Positions 2,853-64,000 of a stretch of 64,000 bases of DNA are shown here, one piece after another. The stretch covers positions 95,652,876 through 95,716,875 of the forward strand of contig JARDVH010000084.1 of NCBI GenBank assembly GCA_030324005.1. The letters are read 5' to 3'. How positions within the stretch are numbered: the stretch's first letter is position 1; each line of letters starts with the position of its first letter. The position numbers and the translations under genes are program-made. Origin of the DNA: Negaprion brevirostris. Its lineage: Eukaryota. The notes beneath the pieces are model-generated. The model saw nothing but the letters and a program-made list of their open reading frames with translations. It had not been told where the DNA came from and did not search any database.

Positions 2853-3247
2853 AAAAAAGGACCATTTATCATACTGCTGTTGGTCGGATCATTCTGAACA
2901 CTGACCAGTTACCACGTTGCAATAGAAATCACATGTCAAAAGTACATTTTTCGTTGTGACAGGTGCCATAAAAACGTGAGTCCTGTCTTTCTTGTGCATC
3001 CTTTCATACAACTGGCATCACTGGGTGAGATGAGTTGGGGAAATAGGGCGAGAACTTCATGAACATCCTTAATGTTCCTTTTTTTCTGCATGTAACTCAG
3101 GCTATTTTCCAGTAACTCACTCCAGGTTAAAATTCCCCTGCAATCACATTTAAACTTAAGCTTACCCTTAACTCTGCCATCCAACTCATCAAAATCTCAT
3201 CCGTCCATTACCCTCTGTGCTCACGGACCTCCATTAGCTCCTGGTTA

Positions 3248-3530
3248 ACAAAGAACAAAGAACAACCCAGCACGGGAAACAGGCCCTTTGGCCCAATGAG
3301 CCCGCGCCGCCGCATCCTCCTACACCTACCCTGCCCTGCGTGTATGCGAGTGGAACCCCTAACTTAGCCAGATTCAGGGGAGAATAGTGTCAATTTGGTA
3401 CACCAATCAGCCTAAGAGCACATCTTTGGGGTGTGGGAGGAAACCCACGCAACCACAGGGAGAATGCGCAAACTCCCACAGACACAGGCCCAAATCCATG
3501 TATCTGCACAGCTAGCAGTGCTAGTCACTG
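3248..3530 (-). mobile_element. Degenerate HE1/V-SINE-like element
   Basis: V-domain-like ggaggaaacccacgca..cagggagaatgcgcaaactcc plus (acaaaga)n tail. Confidence 0.6.
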
Positions 3531-10357: not shown

Positions 10358-10528
10358 TCAGTGGCCACTGGCGTTACGGAATTCGCCATTCTCCGTGATC
10401 TGTAGGCGCGGCGGAGGGTGCGACGACATCATGCCATTCAGCTGGGTCTCGCTGCACCGGTCTTTCATGTGAGTCAGGGTGCTCATCAGCCGGGAGTTGG
10501 TTGCCCCCATCGTTGAGAGCTGCCTCTC
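10358..10528 (-). CDS. SYNGAP1: SYNGAP1 terminal coding exon, alpha2-type frame
   Basis: ttttgtttag|GAGAGGCAG; ERQLSTMGATNSRLMSTLTHMKDRCSETQLNGMMSSHPPPRLQITENGEFRNASGH*; ERQL and PPPRLQITENGEFRN match SynGAP alpha2. Confidence 0.95.
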   Translation of the reverse strand, partial: ERQLSTMGATNSRLMSTLTHMKDRCSETQLNGMMSSHPPPRLQITENGEFRNASGH

Positions 10529-16500: not shown

Positions 16501-18388
16501 NNNNNNNNNNNNNNNNNNNNNNNNNNNNNNNNNNNNNNNNNNNNNNNNNNNNNNNNNNNNNNNNNNNNNNNNNNNNCCCATGGAATCTGCAAAAGTGGAA
16601 ACTTTAGGGAAAGATTTTGTATTCAATGTTTCCTATTTAGAGATTTGAATATTGAGGAGGCCTATTCTCAGTTGAGGCCTAGCTTTCTGAATGGAAAATT
16701 GTCTTCCTTGTTCACTATGTGAAACAATACAATGTGATGGGCTTAATTAGGAAGCTGCACTGTGCTGGGTGACAGTAACCAAAAGGTGCGGTCCTCTGGG
16801 ATCCCTGGAAGAAAGGCCACTTGGTTGCAATGTCAACCTCTTTTGGTGACCCAGAGAAGGTCTTAGTGTGACTCCATATCAGCCTGGACTCAAGAGAGCT
16901 AGCATGTGCTGCGGTGACTCAAGCGGCATGCACTGGCAAACCCTAAGACCAGGACTAACCTTTGGAGGTAATGAACCTTTGTTGCACAGTAAAATGAAAA
17001 TTAATAACATGACGTGGGACGTGTGTGTGTGCTAACACAGTTGACACGTCAAGTGGCAAGGCATAGGTCATGTGGGGACATATTGGTTGAAACGACAAAT
17101 GGACATGCACACAGACACTCATACACGCACAGCGACAGACACAAAAAAAAAGCCACACCACCTCACATCGACTTTGCAGACACGTGTGAAAAGATCTTCA
17201 GTGCAGTCCTTGTCTTAGTTCAAGACTCTCTGATGGAGTATCAGTCCAAGGGGCATCAGGGACCTTGCAGTAGTGCCTGTACCAAGTAAGATGGTGACCT
17301 CAGTTCTTAAGAGCTCTTCAGGTAAAGGCCCTCCACATTCCCCCTCCTCCAACCCCCAACAACCTGGCCCCTTACAGGCCTCTCCAAAGACACTTCTTCC
17401 AGTCCATCAAGGCCTTTGAATCAAGATGTTTCCACCCATTGTACTTTTAATTTCAAAAACAATGTTTATTTGTTGGTGGAAAGGGGAGTGGGGCAAGGGT
17501 GAAAAGGCAAAACTGCAAGAGGTCTATGAGTACATTCGCTCGTGAAGATGTTGTGTAGATTTGATTTCTGACAGCTCTGAAATAGCTGGCCTGCTGGAGA
17601 TGTGCAACAAAGTCCAATATCTGCCCATTTCTTCACCCTCCCTTACTGCCACCATCCCCCAAAACCACTGAATACAAATTATTGCAACCAATTTGAGAAG
17701 GCCTCCAATCCATTTCACATTCAGTCCTCTTTATTCCCCCATTGATGGGGGAAACAACAAACCGTGCAAAGAACCTCCATCGACTTGCACTGCAGCTCAA
17801 CCTTAGGTGACCCATCGCTTAGATATTGGAACTTTTCACACATCTCTGCAGCCTTCAGATCTTCTGAAAGCCAGGGATACTGCAGCTTAAAAGATTTCTC
17901 CCTTTTCTTTGTCTCGTACCTTCTGGTTCGCTGCCCTCAAATGTCGGAGGAGGTACAGGCGGCGCAAGACACCGTTCCAGCCAGGGTTTTCTAGTCGCCT
18001 CTGAGTCGGTCAACAAGGCCCTCACGGCGCGACCATCTCCCCTGCCCCCTTCTGCATGTGAACGGAGCATTCTTTCCCCACACCCAGCTAACAATGTGCC
18101 ACACAATCAAAACCACCAGCCCGAGGAGTGACCCCACTTACCGGGTCCTGTGGCCAAACTTGAATGTAGATCCAGAATTAATTTTTATATAAATATATAT
18201 ATATATATACAATATATATATACTTTTTCAAAACAAAGAATNNNNNNNNNNNNCTCCCTCCCAAAAAAACCTGTCCAGCCAATTAGAGAACTCATTTTCC
18301 TGCCCAGGTTGCCTGCCAGAAGGACATCGCGGTCTAAACGCCGCCCTCAGTAGGTCCCGCGCCAACGGAAACCCGAGGCAGATCAGCG

Positions 18389-18596
18389 TCAGACCAGCTG
18401 CTGCCCCCCTCCCCCTTCCAAGCTGTACTCGAAGCGGCGAGCCTGGCGACGAACGAGGCGGGGGTCTCCGCGGAACTTGGCCTCGATCCGGCTCGAAGCA
18501 TAGTCCTTGGCGCGGTGAGGGCGAGGTGGGTGGGCAGCGGGTGGGGCTGGAAAACCATTTTGCTTTTTTTTGAAGGAATGCTCCATTGACTTCCAG
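18389..18596 (-). CDS. Candidate alternative exon / ORF in last SYNGAP1 intron (acceptor hidden in gap 18597-18673)
   Basis: Preceded by TACTAAT branch point and an AG-free pyrimidine tract of more than 80 nt; GC-rich open frame WKSMEHSFKKKQNGFPAPPAAHPPRP...GGGGQQLV*. Confidence 0.4.
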
Positions 18597-19612
18597 NNNN
18601 NNNNNNNNNNNNNNNNNNNNNNNNNNNNNNNNNNNNNNNNNNNNNNNNNNNNNNNNNNNNNNNNNNNNNNNNNAAAGAAGGCGTAAGAGAGTAAGAAAGG
18701 GGAAAAGAGGAAAGGCAGGAAGAGAAATAAAGAAATTTACATATGTATTTGCAATATTAGTACAATTTGTTGGCACAATTTCCATACCACAAAGGTATAC
18801 CTCACAAAGCACGAACACATACAGACACATGTATATATTGAATACATATGTAGATTATATAAATATATATCACAATCAATAAAGCAATAATGTTAGTTAT
18901 TAGATGCTGCATTTCCAAAATGGTTGCTCAGCAAAGTTTTCGACAGCCTGTACAGTACAGATTACAATAGCCGCCTCCCCTCACACCAGGGAACAGTGAT
19001 GACCATGACACTTGGCGAAGGATGGGGTTATCGAAACCACTTGAACCTGACCGGCTGAGGATAGGGTGCAGTGCCCATCTGATTGCCAAGCCCACCGTGC
19101 ACCTCAACAAAGACAGGATCATCTGGACAGGACATGAAAGCCGGCCGCGCACCCTATCCGGCCACCCTCCCCGTTTTGGCTGCCGGCCGCTGCGAAGTGA
19201 CCACCCCGGTGGGGCAGTGGTCAGGAAAGGCAGCCCGTAATTGCATCCTCAGCCATCGCCACCGCCACTTGTAGGTAATCCTACCGGGAGATCGGAGGCC
19301 ACGGTAGGTCACGTCTGCCCGTCTTGCGCCATTGTCGCACACCTTGGCCGTGGTAGCTCGTCTGCAGCCGCCCCATAACCGTCACCCAACTCCGCCTGTC
19401 TTGACCCCTTTTCCTGACCCGCCAAGAGAGACATTCTAGAAGGTTCTTCCTCCATCTGCGTAGCGCTGACTCCCCCAACCGCCCATCCTTTTTCTTCCCC
19501 CAGTCATTTTATCATTTCCTCCAAGAAAGATGCGATGAATTCATCCACTTGACATTGAAGGTAAGGGTGGGTAGGAGAGGGTAGGCGCCCTTACCCTGGA
19601 GAGCAGGTGGAC

Positions 19613-19833
19613 AACCCCCATCCCGCAGCCCCTCCCCCCTCGGGGCCATCTCGTGCGCCTAACTGTCCCCGCACGCGGTCAGTTTAAATCTCGCCCCGCC
19701 CCTCCCCCACTCGACTTATCAGATTCCGAGCCTGCCGCTCGGCAACCGATGACGTCAACAGCGGACGCAGTTCCGATTGATGCAAAGGCGCGGACCCGCT
19801 CCCATGGAGGGAATTCTCACGATTGGCAGGTCC
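19613..19833 (-). promoter_or_regulatory. Promoter-like cassette copy 1 (left arm of inverted repeat)
   Basis: On the minus strand: CCAAT, TGACGTCA (19750-19757), GGGGCGGGG, TTTAAA (19683-19688). Confidence 0.55.
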
Positions 19834-20347
19834 ATCGATGGGCGCATGTGCGCCCTCACGGCGCAGAATGTTCTACCGAGAGCGAGCGGGCGTCCGTTTT
19901 GGAAGGCGTCGAATGGGGGAGTGCGGTTCAAGAAGCCCAGGTAGGAGAAAATCGGCTCTGAATACCTGTCGTCCGTTGACCGCCCCCCTTTCACAGGATT
20001 CGTTACCTGCTGGGGCGGAGTTATAGCAAGTGAGAGTGGAGGGTTGGGCTGATAAATCGCGTTCGACGTCCGACCAGATATTGGACTACATTAACGTGGC
20101 GGCGTCTCTGACACCAAGTCAGGTTAAACTTGAGCTTAGGCCTGTCAACAGACGCAGCGTTTTGTTTTCTACTTGGGAGACAGGCTCTTGTGATTCTCAG
20201 TGCCTTGGAAAACCTGGGTGTGAATTATGGGCATTGGTTCCCACCAATTTTGCAATAAACCCTGTATAAATACCACGCAGGTTAATCTTTCAGGAAACAG
20301 GAGGGATGGAGTGTAAAATAGATGGTAGATCTGTTACCTAAGTTGTT

Positions 20348-20606
20348 AAAGTTTTATTTATTAGTCTGACAAGTAAGCTTACATTAACACTGCAGTGAAG
20401 TTACTGTGAAAATCCCCCCAGTTGCCACACTGCGGCGCCTGTTCGGGTACACTGAGGGGGAATTTAGGATGGCCCAGTACACCCTAACCAGCATGTCTTT
20501 CGGACTGTGGGAGGAAACCCACACAGACATAGGGAGAACGTGCAGACTCCGCACAGTGATGGAAACTGGGAATTGAACCCAGGTCCCTGACAGCCTGAGG
20601 CAGCAG
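20348..20606 (-). mobile_element. HE1/V-SINE-like element, 5'-truncated
   Basis: V-domain plus B-box gggttcaattccc; same tail subfamily as 22190-22372 and 49725-50016. Confidence 0.85.
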
Positions 20607-20803
20607 GGCCAGCCAATCGGGAGGGAGCGGGTCCGTACCTTTGGACCAATCGGATCGCAGTCCGCTGGTGACGTCATCGGATGCCGAGCGGCAGGCTCGG
20701 AATCTGATAGGTCGAGAGTTGGAGAGGGGTGGGGCGGGATTTAAACTGACCGCGTGTTAGGCGGGCGAGGCGGCCCCAGGGGAGGGGCTGTGGGATGGGG
20801 TTT
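20606..20803 (+). promoter_or_regulatory. Promoter-like cassette copy 2 (right arm of inverted repeat)
   Basis: Reverse complement of 19613-19833 with indels; CCAAT x2, TGACGTCA (20669-20676), GGGGCGGG, TTTAAA (20740-20745). Confidence 0.55.
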
Positions 20804-22189
20804 CTCCAATTTCTTCCCAAATGGCACTGGGGCTGTACATGGATTGCAGTGGCTCATTGCCACCTTCTATTGGGCAGTTAGAGATGGGCAACAAGCATCC
20901 CACAAAGAAAACAGAGATTCAGCTCTTGGCTTCCAGTGAAGATAACTAATAAAACATGACCTGGTCAATGCCCAGTGACTGTGGGTTAGATGTCAATCAG
21001 TGAAATACCATGGAAGTGCAACTAAAGTAAAACAAACAATTTGTGAATGGAGAGAGTTATCCTTCAAGAACAGGAGGCAGAAAGAGAATGTTACTTCAGG
21101 GATCAAACCCAGGTTTGAAGATGACGTGGCTCTGCACACATAGTTCTTGCACATTTGGATGTCAGTTTACTATCTGTTCGTATTGATGTGCTTGAACAGG
21201 GTTTGGTTAGAAATGATATGGGGTAAGGCAAATTTAACTTGCCTGTTCAGAACCAATGGGATTGTATGCGATGCTATTTTTATCTCTTGCCTGAATTGAC
21301 TTTATTAAAGTTAACAGATAAGTCAGTTTTATAACCTTCCACCTGAATCCATAGGATCCCTGCACGTGAGTTTGGGCATAATGATCCCCAATATTTCAGC
21401 AAGCTAAAATTCCATCTATCTATGGAATAACCTGCTCCCTATTAGGACTATGTATGGAACAGATAGTGTTCTTTCAAATGCGAAATCGGACAGATTTTGG
21501 CCTGAAAATTACATTTTGGGAGCTAGTTGATACGTGGTAATGTTTGGGAGAAACAGCTGATTTTTGAACTTCTGCTGTTCAACNNNNNNNNNNNNNNNNN
21601 NNNNNNNNNNNNNNNNNNNNNNNNNNNNNNNNNNNNNNNNNNNNNNNNNNNNNNNNNNNNNNNNNNNNNNNNNNNNNNNNNNNAACATTCTCCACCACAA
21701 TTTTCTTCAAGCCATGACTGGGTCTTTTGTAGACCAGTTGATGGAGATTCCTGTGATCAGTAAACAGCTTCATTATATCATGTAATTATCAGTAATTCCT
21801 ATGTTCCTAACACATTTCCATTGTGTCCTTTATACGTTGGGTGGTGTTTGCACGTATCTGGCCATGTCATATTCTACAATAATTAAATCAAAACTATTCC
21901 TATTTCCTTTCCTGCCTTATTCTGTCTCCACCACCAAACGGCCCACCACCACCACTACTCTCTCCAGGCTCTCCTAATCCCCACTGTATTCATAACATTT
22001 TGGTGTTTCATATTTGCCAGCTAAATTTATCAGGAACTGCAGGGGCCTACCCATGTTCAGAATTCAAACCCATCTTCTCACCAAAATGCCTTAATCCCAT
22101 TTTATCTGTGAAACACTTTCAAAGCCATTGATTAAAGCTACAGCTTACTTATTCCATAAATCCTGTTGCTTTGGTTTAAGTTTATTTCT

Positions 22190-23805: not shown

Positions 23806-24045
23806 TGTAAAAAGTCTGACAACACCAGGTTTTAGTCCAACCGATTTATTTGATAATAAACCCACAAGCTTTTNNNNNNNNNNNNNNNNNNNNNNNNNNN
23901 NNNNNNNNNNNNNNNNNNNNNNNNNNNNNNNNNNNNNNNNNNNNNNNNNNNNNNNNNNNNNNNNNNNNNNNNNTTGGACTAAAACCTGGTGTTGTCAGAC
24001 TTTTTACTGTGTTTACCCCAGTCCAACACCGGCATACCCACATCA
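23806..24045. mobile_element. Palindromic Penelope-type terminal repeat spanning a gap
   Basis: gtaaaaagtctgacaacaccaggttttagtccaa and its exact reverse complement flank the gap. Confidence 0.6.
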
Positions 24046-26569: not shown

Positions 26570-27250
26570 CCTTCTGTATTCCCATTAAACACTTCCAGGC
26601 CAGGTACTGCATGGATTTGATACAGAATAATGCTCCCTGTACACCTTCCCATTAAAAACTCCTAGGAGAGGTACGCCATTGGTTAGATATAGATTAAAGC
26701 TCCCTATGCACTGTCCCATCAAACATCCCAGGATAGTTAGAGCAAGGATTAGATATGGAAGGAAAGCTTCCTCTATTCTTCCTCACTGAAATCCAAGGGT
26801 AGGTACAGCATGGGTTAGGTACAGATTAAAGCTCCCGATGTGTTGTCCCATCAGACACAATGGGCATGCATTAGATATAGAGGAATGCACCCTCTATGCT
26901 GTGCCATCAAACACTCCCAGGACAGGTACAGCACAGGGTTAAATATCGAGTAAAGCTCCCTCTACATTGTCCCCATCAAACAATCCCCGGACAGATACAG
27001 CATGGGGTTAGATACAGAATAAAACTTGTCCACATGTCCCATCGTACATGCCCAGAACAGGTACAGCAGAGAGTAGAGACAGCACAGGGTAGATACACTG
27101 TCTCTCTGCACTGTCCCCATTAAACATCCCCAGGACAGATACAGCATGCAGTTAGATAAAGCTCTTACTACACTATCCTATCAAAATGCTTTCAAGTTAG
27201 GCATGGATTAAGTTAATTACAGAATAAAGCTCCCATTATACTTTTCCCAG
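26570..27250 (+). repeat. ~68-bp tandem repeat (about 10 degenerate units)
   Basis: Unit cactgtcccatcaaacactcccaggacaggtacagcacgggttagatacagagtaaagctccctcta. Confidence 0.9.
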
Positions 27251-31823: not shown

Positions 31824-31911
31824 CTGAACGTCGATTATCCGCTGCTTGGCATCAATGGCCTCCTGCATGTTGGCGTGGTCTTTCCTCAACTCGTCTTCCA
31901 CCACCATTAAC
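31824..31911 (-). CDS. SYNGAP1: SYNGAP1 exon 18 equivalent
   Basis: gcccacag|...|gtacag, 88 bp; (R)LMVVEDELRKDHANMQEAIDAKQRIIDVQ; not present in the ORF track. Confidence 0.93.
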
Positions 31912-32039
31912 CTGTGGGCAGAGGCAAAAGGCAACACAACTCAGCAATTGAGAGAAGGCTTGGGTGCTTGTGGAGGAGCCATTGACATTTACCCTCATTT
32001 TGTGTCCCTTCTTGTCAAACCACAAGTACATCCATAAAC

Positions 32040-34659: not shown

Positions 34660-35350
34660 AGCAAAGTACTGTGGCTGCTGAAATCTGAAATAAACATTGA
34701 AAATGCAGGAAGCCCTCAGCAGGTCAGGCAGCATATTTGCAGAAAGAAACAGTTAATGGGGATGATTTTCCCAAAAAGTTTCAAAGTGTCACAGCAGCGT
34801 GAAAACGGGAGTCCTCCACATTGGTCTTGTGCGCGAGCTTGGCACTGCAATTTTCTAGTGCTCTGTCACTTTCTTCAACGGCTGTGAAACCGCCTTCATA
34901 ATGCTCGGACATCATTGCACATGGCGCCCCGATCTCCTAGTGAACCAGGATATCTCCCATGATGCACTGCCCCTGGCACGTTTAGAGTACTGCCCGTCCA
35001 CACCTCCAACCGCCCAGGAGCTTCCAAACTCCTCGGCGTGGCCATGGTTCCTGGTCCCCATTACTGCAAGGCAGTTATGATTCTCACTACCGTGATGTCT
35101 CGCCAGTGGGAAGCATATTCGGAAAGGTGGAAGCAGCTGTGCTGAACTTAAGTAGATGTTAATGTAGTCAGTTCCTATGGGCAGGAACATAGCATGTCAA
35201 GGCTTGTCACACTGATGAACCAGCACAGTGAACTGGTAAGATATTTCAGATTGATGATCTTTCATTAAGTTATCATCCTGAAACGTTAATTCCTTTTGTT
35301 CCACACATGCTGACAAGCCTGCTGAGTATTTTCAGCATTTTCTAATTTTT
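34660..35350. mobile_element. Palindromic Penelope-derived element split by an insertion of about 480 bp
   Basis: Arms aaatgc..ctcagcaggtcaggcagcat..agttaa / ttaa..atgctgacaagcctgctgagtattttcagcatttt; related copy at 63570-63720. Confidence 0.55.
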
Positions 35351-39160: not shown

Positions 39161-39439
39161 CAAAAGGACGATCAGGTGTAAAGACTTGATATTTAGATTT
39201 GAATTTATTTTAATGCAGTTCCTGATGTCGGAAAGCCTGTTACATCACTGTTGAGTTGTGGGGACAATTGCAACAGGACGTATAACGTGATGTGGACCTC
39301 TTGTGAGATTTTGCGTTTCCATCACCGTTCATGTCCAAGAAGAATGGAGCACAAAATCCCAGCTTTTAAGTATATCTGTGTGTTGGGACCAGATCCTGGA
39401 TGAGAAAATAAAATGTGGTGAATGTCAGGATTCTGGTGA

Positions 39440-39915
39440 CAGTTGCTGACTACGCCAGCATTTATTGCCCTTCCCTAATTGTCCTTGAGAAGGTGGTGGT
39501 GAGCTGCCTTCTTAAACCACTGCAGTTCCTGGGGTCTAGGTACAACCAGAGTGCTGTTAGGATGGGCATTCCAAGATTTTGACCTAGCTATAATGAAGGA
39601 ACAGCTATATATTTTCAAGGTCAGGATGGTGAATGGTTTGAAGGAGAACTTCCAGATGGTGGTGTTCCCATATGTCTACTACCTTTTTCCTTGTAGATGG
39701 TCGCAGTCGTGGGTTTGGAATGTGCTGTCTTAAGGATGGTAATGATGGTACATAAGGCTACCACTGTGCATCAGTGGTGGAGGAAGTGAATGCTTCTCAA
39801 TGGTATGCCATGAGTCAGGCTGCTTTTGATGTTTAGCTTCTTGATNNNNNNNNNNGCCGATCAGCCTGGCTGTTTTACCTTGGATAGTGTTTAGTTTCTT
39901 GAATGTTGTTGTTAT
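39440..39915 (-). mobile_element. LINE 3' fragment
   Basis: Same family as 6300-6700. Confidence 0.75.
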
Positions 39916-45569: not shown

Positions 45570-46683
45570 GTGAAATATGGGGTGATGTATTTGGACTTTG
45601 GAAAGTTTTTGATGAAGTTCCAAGAAAGAAATTAGTGTGCAAAATTCAAGGACGTGGAATTGAGGGTAATGTATTGGCATGAATTGAGAATTGGTTAGCA
45701 GACAAGATAGAGAGTGGGAATAAATGTTTTTTATTCCGAAGTGGCAGGCAGTGACTAGTGGGGTCCCACAGGGCTCAGTGCTTGGGCCCCAACTGTTTAC
45801 CATTCATATGATTTGGATGAGGGAACCAGGAGTAATATTTCAAGGTGTGTAGATGGCTTAAAATGTGGTGGGAATGTGAGTTGTGAGGAGGATGTTAAGA
45901 GGCTTCAAAATAATTTAGACAAGTTTGAATGAGTAGGCAAATACATGGCAGGTGCAGTATAACGTGGATTAATGTGCAGTGAACTAGAGAAGGAAAAACA
46001 GAATGGCAAAGTATATAAATGATGATAGATTGGAAAATGTTCACATACAAAGGGACCTGGCTGTTCTGGTACACCAGTCACTGAGAGCAAGTATGTTTCA
46101 AACGCAAATGAGTTAAGGAGCAAGGATGTTTTACTGTGACTGTACAGGATCTTTGTGAGACCATACTCAGATAATTGTGTGGTCTCCTTATCTAAGAAAG
46201 GATATATTTGCAAGAAAGAAAGTGCAACAAAGGCTTCCCAGACTGATTACTGGAATGGCAGGATTGTCATATGAGGAAACATTGTGTCGAATGGCCTGTA
46301 TTCATTGCAGTTTAGAAGAATGAGAGGGGATCGGTTTGAAATGTGCTGAGCTGAGTGGATGCAGGAAGGTTGTTTCCTCTGGCTGGAGGCTGAAGAATAA
46401 GAGATCACTGTCTTAGGATACAGGGTAGGCCATTTAAGATGAGATGGGAAACTTCATTTACAGGATGGTGAATTTGGAATTCTCTATTACAAAAGGCTGG
46501 GAGATCAACTCACTGAGTATATTTATGAATGAAATAGATATCTAGACTCTCATGGTTTTACAGAGTATGGAAAGAGCGCTGGAGAATGGTGTTGAGAAAG
46601 AGGATTAGCTATGATCATGTTGAATGGCTGAGCACGCTCAAAAGGCCCAATTGCATACATTGCTCCTATTTTCAATGTTTCTA
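45570..46683 (+). mobile_element. Decayed CR1 LINE (RT to 3' end)
   Basis: YLDF..VTSGVPQGSVLGP motif sequences and CR1 tail. Confidence 0.9.
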
Positions 46684-46850
46684 ACCCGTGCTGTACTTGC
46701 CAGGGAGTGTTTGATGGAGATAGTATAGAGGGAGCTTTACTCTGTATCTAACCCCATGCTGTACCTGTCCTGGGCGTGTTTGATGGAGATAGTGTAGAGA
46801 GAGCTTTACTCTGTATCTAACGTGTGCTGTACCTATCCTGGGAGTGTTTG
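46684..46850 (-). repeat. ~68-bp repeat, 2-3 units, immediately downstream of exon 13
   Basis: Reverse complement of the 26570-27250 unit. Confidence 0.85.
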
Positions 46851-60525: not shown

Positions 60526-62294
60526 GGTGAGCAAGCTCAGCATAGCCAACTGCCTGGTAGGGACATATACAAATATGTCCAAACATTACCAAAATTTGAT
60601 GAAAAGGATGCAGAAGCCTTTTTTGTTTCCTTTGAGAAATTGGCTACGGAGATGAAATGGTCAGAGGAGGTGTGAGTAATATTAATTCGGACCAAGTTGA
60701 TAGGCAGGGCTGCAGAGGTGTTAGAGGAGGTGTCAAGAAACTATAAAGAATATAGAAGGCTGTTTTCTGTGCTTATGAATTGGTACCAAAAGCATATAGA
60801 CAACAGTTCAGAAATGTAAGGAAGGAATCAGCTCAGACATATATGAATTAAGAAAGAATTTGGCAGAGCAACTTCAAGAGATGAATGAGAGCATTAAAGA
60901 TAGAAAAAAAACATATGAGGCTATTAGAGATATTATTCTGCTGGAGGAGTTGAAAAACTCACTTCCAGAAGTAGTAAGAACTCATGTTGAGGAGCAGAAA
61001 ATCGAAACAGCGAGAAGAGCTGTAGAGATGGCAGATAAATACACGTTAGTGCATAAATTGAAATCTAGCTCTCAAAAGCAATTTCATTCCATAAGGTATA
61101 GAATTGGGAAAGAGGGAGATTGTTCAATGAAAAACAAAGTAGATCGCACTGGGAACATTTTACCACCTGTGAAAAAAGAAAGCTAAGAGGGTGGGAAAGA
61201 GGTGAAAGACCTCGGGTGTTTTCACTGTGATACGATGGGGCATAAAAAGAAACAGTGCTGTTGGCACAGAAAGAAAGGAAGGCACAGGGGAAAAGGATGT
61301 GGTTAAAGATGCTCAACCAGTGGGTTTAGTTAACACAGTGAAGGAAATCGCGAGAGAAGTCGAGGAGCTGAAAGAGAGTGCACAGCATAGGTAAGGGCTG
61401 GATAATAAGATAGCTCCCAAACTGTTCAAATACNNNNNNNNNNNNNNNNNNNNNNNNNNNNNNNNNNNNNNNNNNNNNNNTAAAGAAGTTAAAATATTGA
61501 GAGATACGAGAGCTAGCCTGTCTCTAATAGATGAAGATATTTGTATTCCTTCTGAAGTATTGCCCGAGAGAGTGGTAATCTGTGAAATAAATGAAGAGAG
61601 GAATAGTGTTCCCTTGTGTAAAATAAGACTGGAAAGTCCGGTCAAGATTGGGGAAGTGATAGTGGGAGTGATGGAAAACTTAGCTATTCCAGGAATACAG
61701 TTTATCCTTGCAAATGATTATAGCTTGATCACAAGCGGGAGTGATGACCATTGTTATGGAAAAGCCAAAAGAAAATCAGGCAACTGAGGAGTTGAAAGAA
61801 AAATACCCTGGAATTTTTCCGGACTCTGATGGCAAGATGCCACAGCTGTAAGTTAAAACAGGAAGGGAGAACAAAAGGAAAGATGAAGGAGTTGAGATAG
61901 TTAGCTGACATGCTGTTTGATGAGATGGTAAAGGAAAAACCAAAGCAGGTTGAGAATTAGGCAGAGGTGCTTAATTCTGAAAGATTAATGGAGTTACAAC
62001 AGAAAGGTGAGACGATAAAGGATTTATATCATAACATCTATATGGAAAAGAAATCAGTGTGTATTCCAGAATGCTATTACCTTAAGGATAAAACATTAAG
62101 GCAGAAATGGAGACCTTGGCAGGTTACTGCAGATGAGAAATGGGCTTAAATTCATCAGATTGTGTTGCTAGTAGAATATAGACAGGACGTATTGCGGAAA
62201 GCATATAAATTACCTGTAGGAGGTCATCTAGGAGTGAGGAAGCCTCAGGTTAAGATGCAGAAGCATTTTTATTGGTTTGGATTACATAAAGGGT

Positions 62295-62612
62295 TACACA
62301 GTGGTTAGCACTGCTGCCTCACGGTGTCTGGGAACCTGGGTTTGATTCCCAGCTTGGGTCACTGTGTGGAGTTTGCACATTTTCTGTATGTCTGCAAGGG
62401 TTTACTCTGGGTGTTTCTGGTTTCCTCCCACAGTCCAAAGATGTGCGGGTTAGGAGGATTGGCTATGCTAAATTGCCCCTAAGTGTCAGGGGGATTAGCA
62501 TGGTAAATACATGGAGTTATGGGGATAGGGCCGAGGTGGGATTGTGGTCGGTGTAGACGTAATGGGCCGAATGACCTCCTTCTGCACTGTAGAATTCTCT
62601 AATTCTATTCTG
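62295..62612 (+). mobile_element. HE1/V-SINE nested in Gypsy integrase
   Basis: cacagtggttagcactgctgcctcac...ccttctgcactgtagaattct(attct)n. Confidence 0.9.
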
Positions 62613-64000
62613 TAAAGGTGTGGTTGAATTTTGGCGTACATATCATACATGTCAGACGGTAGGCAAGCCACAGGCAGTGATAAAGCCAGTGCCTTTGATG
62701 CTAATTCCTTCACTTGAAGAACCCATTACATGGGTTATAGATGATTGTGTAGGTTCCCTCCTAAAACCAAAAGTGGGAACCAGTATTTGCTAACTGTAAT
62801 GGAAGTGTTCACAAGGTTTTCAAAGGCAGTTACTTTATGGAGGCAAAAAAAGGTTGTGGAGGAGTTGCTTGCTTTCTTTACCCGTTATGGATTATCCAGG
62901 GAGATTCATTCAGACCAAGGGTCCAATTTTATTGCCAAATTATTTAAGGAGGTTATGGATAGTTTAGGTATCAGACACTTTACATTGAGTGCAGATCATC
63001 CTGAATCCCAGGGAGCATTGTAAAGCTGGCAAAAGACCCTGAAGACCATGTTGAGGGCTTACTGCCAGGATTAGCCAACTGATTAGGATAAAGGTATCCC
63101 CTTTATATTACGTGCTTTAGAGATGCTCCAAATTAATTGACTTTACTCCATTTGAATTGATATTCGGACATGAAATAAGAGGACCTTTAAAATTAATTAA
63201 GGAAAAGTTGGTGGGTCCAAAGTCAGATCTCACAGTTAGATTATGTATCTGAGGTGAGAGAAAGATTAAATAGTGTGGGTGAATTAGCTAGACAACATTT
63301 GAAAGTGGCTCACCACCTAATGAAATAAGAAACAGGTAAGAAATCTAAAATTTGTACATTTACCTGTGGGGATAAAGTATTGCTGCTATTACCAGTGGTA
63401 GGAGAATCCTTCAAAGCAAGGTTTAGTGGTCCCTATCGGATTGAGAAGAAGTTTTCAGGTGAATTATCTGGTAAAGATGACAGATAGGAAAAAATGTATA
63501 GGGTATGTCATGTGAATATGCTAAAACAGTACAATGACGCAGAAAGGGAACCTGAGAAACAGGTACCAAAAGAGAAAATGCTGGAAAATCTCAGCAGGTC
63601 TGGCAGCATCTGTAAGAAGAGAAAAGAGCTGAATCCTGACTCAAAAAGTCATTTCTTTTCTCTCCTTACAGATGCTGCCAGCATCCAGATTCCAGCATCC
63701 ACAGTAATTTGCTTTTATTACTGAGAAACAGGTATTAGTTACTGCCACTCGGAGTGAGGAATCAAATCCAGATAATGTGGATTTTGATGTGCCTCAGAAT
63801 AAATTGAGTAATGAAGAAATCCTTAAGGAATGGAATAGGACAATGAGCGATCTGTCCTAGGAACAGAGAATTGAACTGAAAGACTTGTTACAATGTTATG
63901 AGGACCAATGTACAAATAGAATGGGGAGGACTATTGATATAGTATGTGAGGTTGACATAGGTAATGCTATTCCGATAAAACAACACCCCTATCTGCTTAA

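Follow-up and report, generated by a model that had tools for sequence, protein, structure and literature searches.

The locus analysed here raises the question of why two inverted copies of the same promoter-like cassette, about 200 bases each and some 770 bases apart, lie within one intron of Negaprion brevirostris. All positions refer to the window, the whole stretch of 64,000 nucleotides that was analysed (GCA_030324005.1, contig JARDVH010000084.1, positions 95,652,876 to 95,716,875, forward strand). The host gene lies on the minus strand and encodes RasGAP and DAB2P_C domains (Pfam search); one of its exons was identical in 70 of 75 residues to the SynGAP chain 3bxj_A, in a comparison covering matches among which the paralogues DAB2IP and RASAL2 did not appear. 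By its coding sequence the host is a SYNGAP1-type gene, and both copies (arms 1 and 2) are located in its last intron, of about 21 kb (from the exon at 31824-31913 to the last exon, starting at 10528). On balance, we lean towards reading arm 1 as part of an intragenic CpG-island promoter or enhancer, and arm 2 as an old local inverted copy of it produced by template switching. Most likely, the locus is an unrecorded case combining an intragenic CpG island with a local inverted duplication, both of known kinds, and it draws attention to a possible internal promoter close to the SYNGAP1 3' end; no description of it was found in the literature searched, at the level of main texts. The positions of the main features are summarized in Table 1.

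Table 1. Features of the two arms and of their surroundings, with positions and strands in the window.
Feature	Position	Strand	Basis and remarks
Branch-point-like TACTAAT	18756-18762	-	Read directly; followed by a pyrimidine tract running into the N gap 18597-18673
CpG island (1122 bp)	18995-20116		The window's sole strict island; includes arm 1 but leaves out arm 2
Splice-donor-like AGG/GTAAGG (/ marks the junction)	19589-19597	-	Consensus matched at 7 of 9 positions; several further 7-of-9 sites lie close by
Arm 1, probable source copy	19613-19833	-	Alignment and motifs
Arm 1 motifs	CCAAT 19822-19826; CRE 19750-19757; GC box 19694-19702; TTTAAA 19683-19688
Inner part of the island	19834-20116		Unique to the arm 1 side; simple-consensus scoring
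SINE-like dispersed repeat	20345-20606	-	Between the arms; ends exactly at the arm 2 edge
Arm 2, probable derived inverted copy	20606-20803	+	Alignment and motifs; repeat remnants directly on both sides
Arm 2 motifs	CCAAT 20613 and 20646; CRE 20669-20676; GC box 20732-20737; TTTAAA 20740-20745
Remnant of another dispersed repeat	20817-20894	+	Adjoins the outer end of arm 2
AATAAA	20948-20953	+	Some 178 nt past the predicted start of arm 2; precedes every donor-like site

The reverse complement of arm 1 was identical to arm 2 in 171 of 196 ungapped columns (87%); the differences were 13 transitions, 12 transversions and 27 gap columns in 4 indels (13, 2, 9 and 3 nt), in agreement with the preliminary description of reverse-complementary arms of about 200 bp with substitutions and indels. 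The arm-arm local alignment scored 249 (vs. a maximum of 51 in 1000 shuffles), and the pair was recovered when, as had been proposed, the window was compared with itself (BLAST, E 1.7e-48). No third copy of the arms was found by self-comparison of the 64-kb window, in which other repeat families recur several times, and homology stopped at the arm ends (arm 2 flanks vs. arm 1 flanks, p 0.15-0.66), with no longer duplication reaching beyond them. A haplotype or assembly duplicate was discarded, since the 13% divergence is too high and the sequence from 18674 to 21583 is free of N gaps. Contamination by vector or phage sequence, for which plasmids and phages gave no match, was also rejected, as was an origin as a tandem array (the only tandem feature was a TA run at 18186).

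Both arms contained CCAAT, CRE (TGACGTCA), GGGCGG and TTTAAA, in an order that is mirrored between them; the retention of these four elements in promoter order, as first described, was confirmed. The two full CREs, at 19750 (arm 1) and 20669 (arm 2), were the only ones in the 64-kb window, while TTTAAA occurred 57 times. The ordered four-motif cassette appeared in none of 20000 dinucleotide shuffles of the island, for a pattern chosen after being seen and with arm 2 not being an independent second occurrence; a full CRE alone appeared in 298 of 20000. Both TGACGTCA and TTTAAA are palindromes, and the outward polarity of the arms, also proposed in the preliminary description, therefore derives from motif order alone; motif order does suggest it, but the TATA pattern given in PMC11676430 matched each arm only on the inward-reading strand. 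The full CCAAT pattern from the same source was present twice in arm 2 and was not found in arm 1. A cAMP or activity response might be expected from the CRE 8-mer, its sole basis.

Arm 2 was outside the strict CpG island (at least 500 bp, GC of at least 55%, CpG o/e of at least 0.65), in a separate 405-bp CpG patch meeting looser criteria only. There were 22 CpG sites in arm 1 and 18 in arm 2 (o/e 1.04 and 0.98 respectively, vs. 0.28 for the window). Fifteen CpGs were shared and 4 had decayed, at a non-CpG divergence of 11.7%, consistent with the earlier observation that both arms keep many CpGs. In nine other repeat pairs of the window (13-26% diverged), 3 CpGs were shared and 29 had decayed (Fisher p 7e-7, a value which overstates independence because these controls share some members and most of them are more diverged than the arms); the two control pairs closest in divergence shared 2 CpGs, with 8 decayed. 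The decay of the arms was therefore unlike that of methylated repeats. In the elephant shark, a cartilaginous fish, hypermethylation of transposons and gene bodies is reported, together with a TSS methylation inverse to expression (PMC5437953). CpG retention, considered together with this hypermethylation, points to a long escape from germ-line methylation, and both arms would thus have been unmethylated in the germ line for a long time. The SINE between the arms had an ordinary CpG o/e (0.37 vs. 0-0.42 in 5 other copies), and a spread of the island visible as protection of the SINE CpGs was not seen.

According to PMC8286816, orphan islands account for about half of all CpG islands, and SP1/NRF1-type sites contribute to the unmethylated state of islands. 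The island resembles the orphan and intragenic islands of that report in being intronic, with a GC content of 59-60%, a CpG o/e of 0.6-1.1, low CpG decay and GC-box, CCAAT, CRE and NRF1-like sites; unlike in them, part of its core recurs as an inverted copy beyond its limits. No coding signal was detected in it: codon-bias and stop-count tests gave p values of 0.43-0.63 (for 4 of 5 held-out exons, the codon model gave the true frame the highest of the six scores), and none of 12 frame translations of 17698-20342 matched a Pfam family. A decayed ORF was accordingly rejected (no Pfam family, no homologue, no codon bias). The inner part of the island presumably includes an NRF1-like palindrome (19842-19853), GC boxes near 19987 and 20012 and a reverse CCAAT (20080), together with a plus-strand donor-like site (19941) and an AATAAA (20254); from these motifs, arm 1 alone could fire both ways.

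Arm 1 is probably the source and arm 2 the derived copy, because arm 1 lies inside the island and has continuous CpG-rich flanks. The repeat at the inner edge of arm 2, which we take to be a SINE in minus orientation, stops where 5 of 6 other aligned copies continue, and at the junction a zone of 9-12 nt is similar to the SINE continuation and to arm 1 alike. Its non-CpG divergence from 5 other copies was 15-21%, vs. 11.7% between the arms, which fits copying later than the SINE. The remnant at the outer end, presumably LINE 3'-tail-like, aligned with a copy at 39400-39650 (score 46 vs. a shuffle maximum of 35) and gave p values of 0.09 and 0.49 with two other family copies (significant in 1 of 3). 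No target-site duplication (TSD) longer than 2 nt was found at symmetric ends, and none of at least 6 nt with free ends; 2-nt matches arose by chance at 3 of 60 symmetric boundaries, and an old TSD could have decayed.

Arm 2 has the form expected of a template-switch product: it reverse-complements a neighbouring segment, ends abruptly and lacks a TSD. Template switches generate inverted copies (PMC5453318), and human events are reported to be up to 318 bp long, with a mean of 11.6 bp (10.1101/2021.11.26.470150). The arms resemble the duplications described in these two reports in the nearby reverse-complement copy, the absence of a TSD and a junction resembling both flanks, but are near the upper length limit, with a distant template (770 bp), and old (13% diverged). 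A switch of 200 bp across 770 bp greatly exceeds the typical event described there in length, which counts against template switching. Alternatively, the SINE and the LINE, both 5'-truncated, could have been inserted later on both sides of a pre-existing arm 2.

In the explanation that we favour, an island promoter or enhancer with a local copy, the segment 18995-20116 would be an orphan CpG island, largely unmethylated in the germ line and held open by its GC-box, CCAAT, CRE and NRF1-like sites. The arm 1 cassette would initiate host-sense transcription, with the most likely start near 19660, and the short first exon would run as far as the donor at 19594. About 200 bp of this cassette would have been copied once, locally and in inverted orientation, when replication or repair switched template across about 770 bp; the copy, arm 2, would have landed between two older repeats, probably clipping both. 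Its CpGs may have been kept by the same factor sites, beside the island, and it would at most add binding sites or short unstable antisense RNA.

The arms may instead be pieces of a transposon or an endogenous virus, and the island a young or protected insertion, an origin that we consider unlikely: they would be promoter fragments from the LTRs or LINE 5'UTRs of related subfamilies, or else the inverted termini of an element of DIRS-like, Penelope-like or non-autonomous DNA type. Cassettes of the CCAAT-CRE-GC-TATA type are typical of LTRs, two young inserts from diverged subfamilies would share CpGs as well, and GC content rises steeply near 19000. Young SINEs, LINE 5'UTRs and LTRs are also reported to satisfy CpG-island criteria (PMC12582260). 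One minus-strand frame after arm 1 has just 3 stops in 208 codons, but no homologue of it was found among 344 candidates, and the codon-bias and stop-count tests described above revealed neither bias nor a stop deficit. The lack of a TSD, of a Pfam match, of plasmid or phage matches and of a third arm copy in 64 kb also argues against mobile pieces, and so does the number of TG..CA-plus-4-mer candidates (1 of 208 pairs vs. 0.8 expected by chance). Nothing in the window reached the Rfam gathering thresholds, hammerheads included (3 chance-level matches in 17400-21000, E 1.7-4.4), and a structured-RNA family was rejected. An arm-spanning ORF had no homologue among 51 candidates. The ORF consisting half of arm 2 and half of the SINE had 5 matches: the best stretch ran from residue 42 on in 4 of them, and the BLASTP alignment of the fifth (27-118) began only at residue 44. 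None of these matches aligned to the arm (the two nearest were inspected), in a weak test, the SINE control itself having 5 matches only.

The known elements to be compared are, as we take it, TIR DNA transposons or MITEs, DIRS-like elements with inverted LTRs and Penelope elements with inverted pseudo-LTRs, all similar to the locus in their layout, a spacer enclosed by a pair of inverted arms of about 200 bp. Here, by contrast, neither a TSD nor a hammerhead was found, remnants of a transposase, RT or recombinase were absent, and a single pair was present in the window, with very different contexts for its two arms. The marks of LTR, DIRS-like and Penelope-like elements (TG..CA with TSD, gag/pol/recombinase remnant, hammerhead ribozyme) were not found at the locus. 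Local duplication, as originally suggested, is thus supported over DNA-transposon ends by the absence of a TSD and of a third copy in the window.

The preliminary description went further and considered the duplicated cassette a matched bidirectional promoter. Local duplication and a promoter-like setting were upheld; the activity of both arms was not. Two working, selected, back-to-back promoters, with CRE-driven sense transcription and regulatory antisense transcription into the upstream SYNGAP1 exons, are considered improbable. Both arms still carry the CRE, GC box, TTTAAA and one CCAAT, arm 2 matches the full CCAAT consensus twice, and all 4 indels fall outside the motifs (p 0.018 counting gap columns, but just 4 events). 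However, substitutions were evenly distributed along the arms (p 0.62), motif columns were not significantly better conserved than the rest (34 identical/3 different vs. 137/22 ungapped columns, p 0.42), and 3 of the 4 CpG decays were located in arm 2 (not significant). The two contexts are also asymmetric: arm 1 is in the strict island and is followed by a donor, whereas arm 2 is outside the island, wedged between repeats, with unshared flanks. The stretch between the predicted starts, about 1.1 kb apart and sharing no elements, is interrupted by the 260-bp SINE-like repeat with ordinary CpG decay, whereas TSS-bearing islands are reported almost never to contain TEs (PMC12582260).

With starts predicted from TTTAAA, arm 1 would be followed by a donor-like site at about +64, which has no counterpart after arm 2, and by a first poly(A) hexamer at +1923; arm 2 would be followed by the repeat remnant, the AATAAA at +178 and a first donor-like site at +596. 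An early donor and a late poly(A) site are the usual explanation of promoter directionality. This argument is weakened here because poly(A)-factor loss is reported barely to change upstream antisense transcription, most of which is ended by Integrator and not by a poly(A) factor (PMC11230626). The locus is similar to the bidirectional promoters described in PMC11676430 in being GC- and CpG-rich, with CCAAT and GC boxes and possible starts on both strands; in that description they have one regulatory stretch common to two genes, mostly without TATA, whereas here two cassettes are split by a SINE and no gene or exon was found after arm 2.

A human SYNGAP1 antisense RNA is reported to be anticorrelated with SYNGAP1 in the cortex (PMC3851999), and a transcript from arm 2 would likewise be antisense to SYNGAP1, by analogy only. 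A still bolder version, which we think quite improbable, is that one inverted copying event made back-to-back twins which were both kept, with neuronal activity tuning SYNGAP1 from its last intron through a sense unit from arm 1 and an antisense transcript from arm 2. The sense unit would have two exons (donor 19594, branch point 18757, second exon within 18600-17450). If true, the kept twins would have reached independently an arrangement parallel to human SYNGAP1-AS, with a datable birth of a divergent pair; and were arm 2 active and conserved, a divergent promoter pair and an antisense regulator could arise in one step.

The minus-strand element at 17450-18760 comprises a candidate branch point, a pyrimidine tract, a CpG-rich stretch (o/e 0.7-0.96) with open frames, and an AT-rich tail with AATAAA/ATTAAA at 17735, 17470 and 17451; its main acceptor is concealed by the gap 18597-18673. 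No homologue of its ORF at 18389-18595 was found among longer proteins, which is weak evidence, and codon usage in the element gave an ambiguous signal. In mammals, the SYNGAP1 gamma exon 19 lies between exons 18 and 20, and 3'-end isoform choice is reported to set synaptic function (PMC7314543). Provided that mammalian exons 18 and 20 correspond to the exons flanking this intron, the element could be a gamma-like terminal exon; it could also be the second exon of an arm 1 transcript. The last exon (10358-10528, minus strand) reads an alpha2-like tail ending in RLQITENGEFRNASGH; a neighbouring frame reads RGSSQRWGQPTPG and then a stop, without the QTRV PDZ ligand of mammalian alpha1, and the third frame is open throughout too.

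Least of all do we expect the selected product to be an RNA duplex in SYNGAP1 pre-mRNA, acting as an ADAR substrate or as a switch for the nearby candidate exon: a long duplex was indeed predicted (175 paired bases, longest unbroken run 28, -346.7 kcal/mol vs. a mean of -147 in 50 shuffles), also present in the predicted full fold, and the arms are the sole long inverted pair in the 21-kb intron besides a 34-bp pair flanking an N gap, but any inverted repeat would fold likewise, 12 transversions and 4 indels break the pairing without compensation, and the duplex covers no splice signal. The distance of about 850 nt between the duplex and the branch point ahead of the candidate exon, as first estimated, was accurate (about 856 nt from arm 1). 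Substitutions preserving pairing were not favoured on the sense strand (5 G-U vs. 8 A-C, p 0.58), and there is, therefore, no sign of selection on pairing.

Several other features were observed in the window. The perfect 34-bp inverted pair (23807-24007) flanks a 100-N gap and probably either stems from the assembly or represents a small palindromic repeat. A tandem array of units of about 67 bp was located at 26580-27240, with an inverted related array 20 kb away (46676-46850). Broken plus-strand ORFs at 60800-63020, without similarity to the arms, presumably correspond to the gag, protease and integrase of an LTR retrotransposon. Short CpG-rich patches with no assigned exon were present at 34758-35178 and 3118-3401; the other patches of this kind mostly coincided with host exons.
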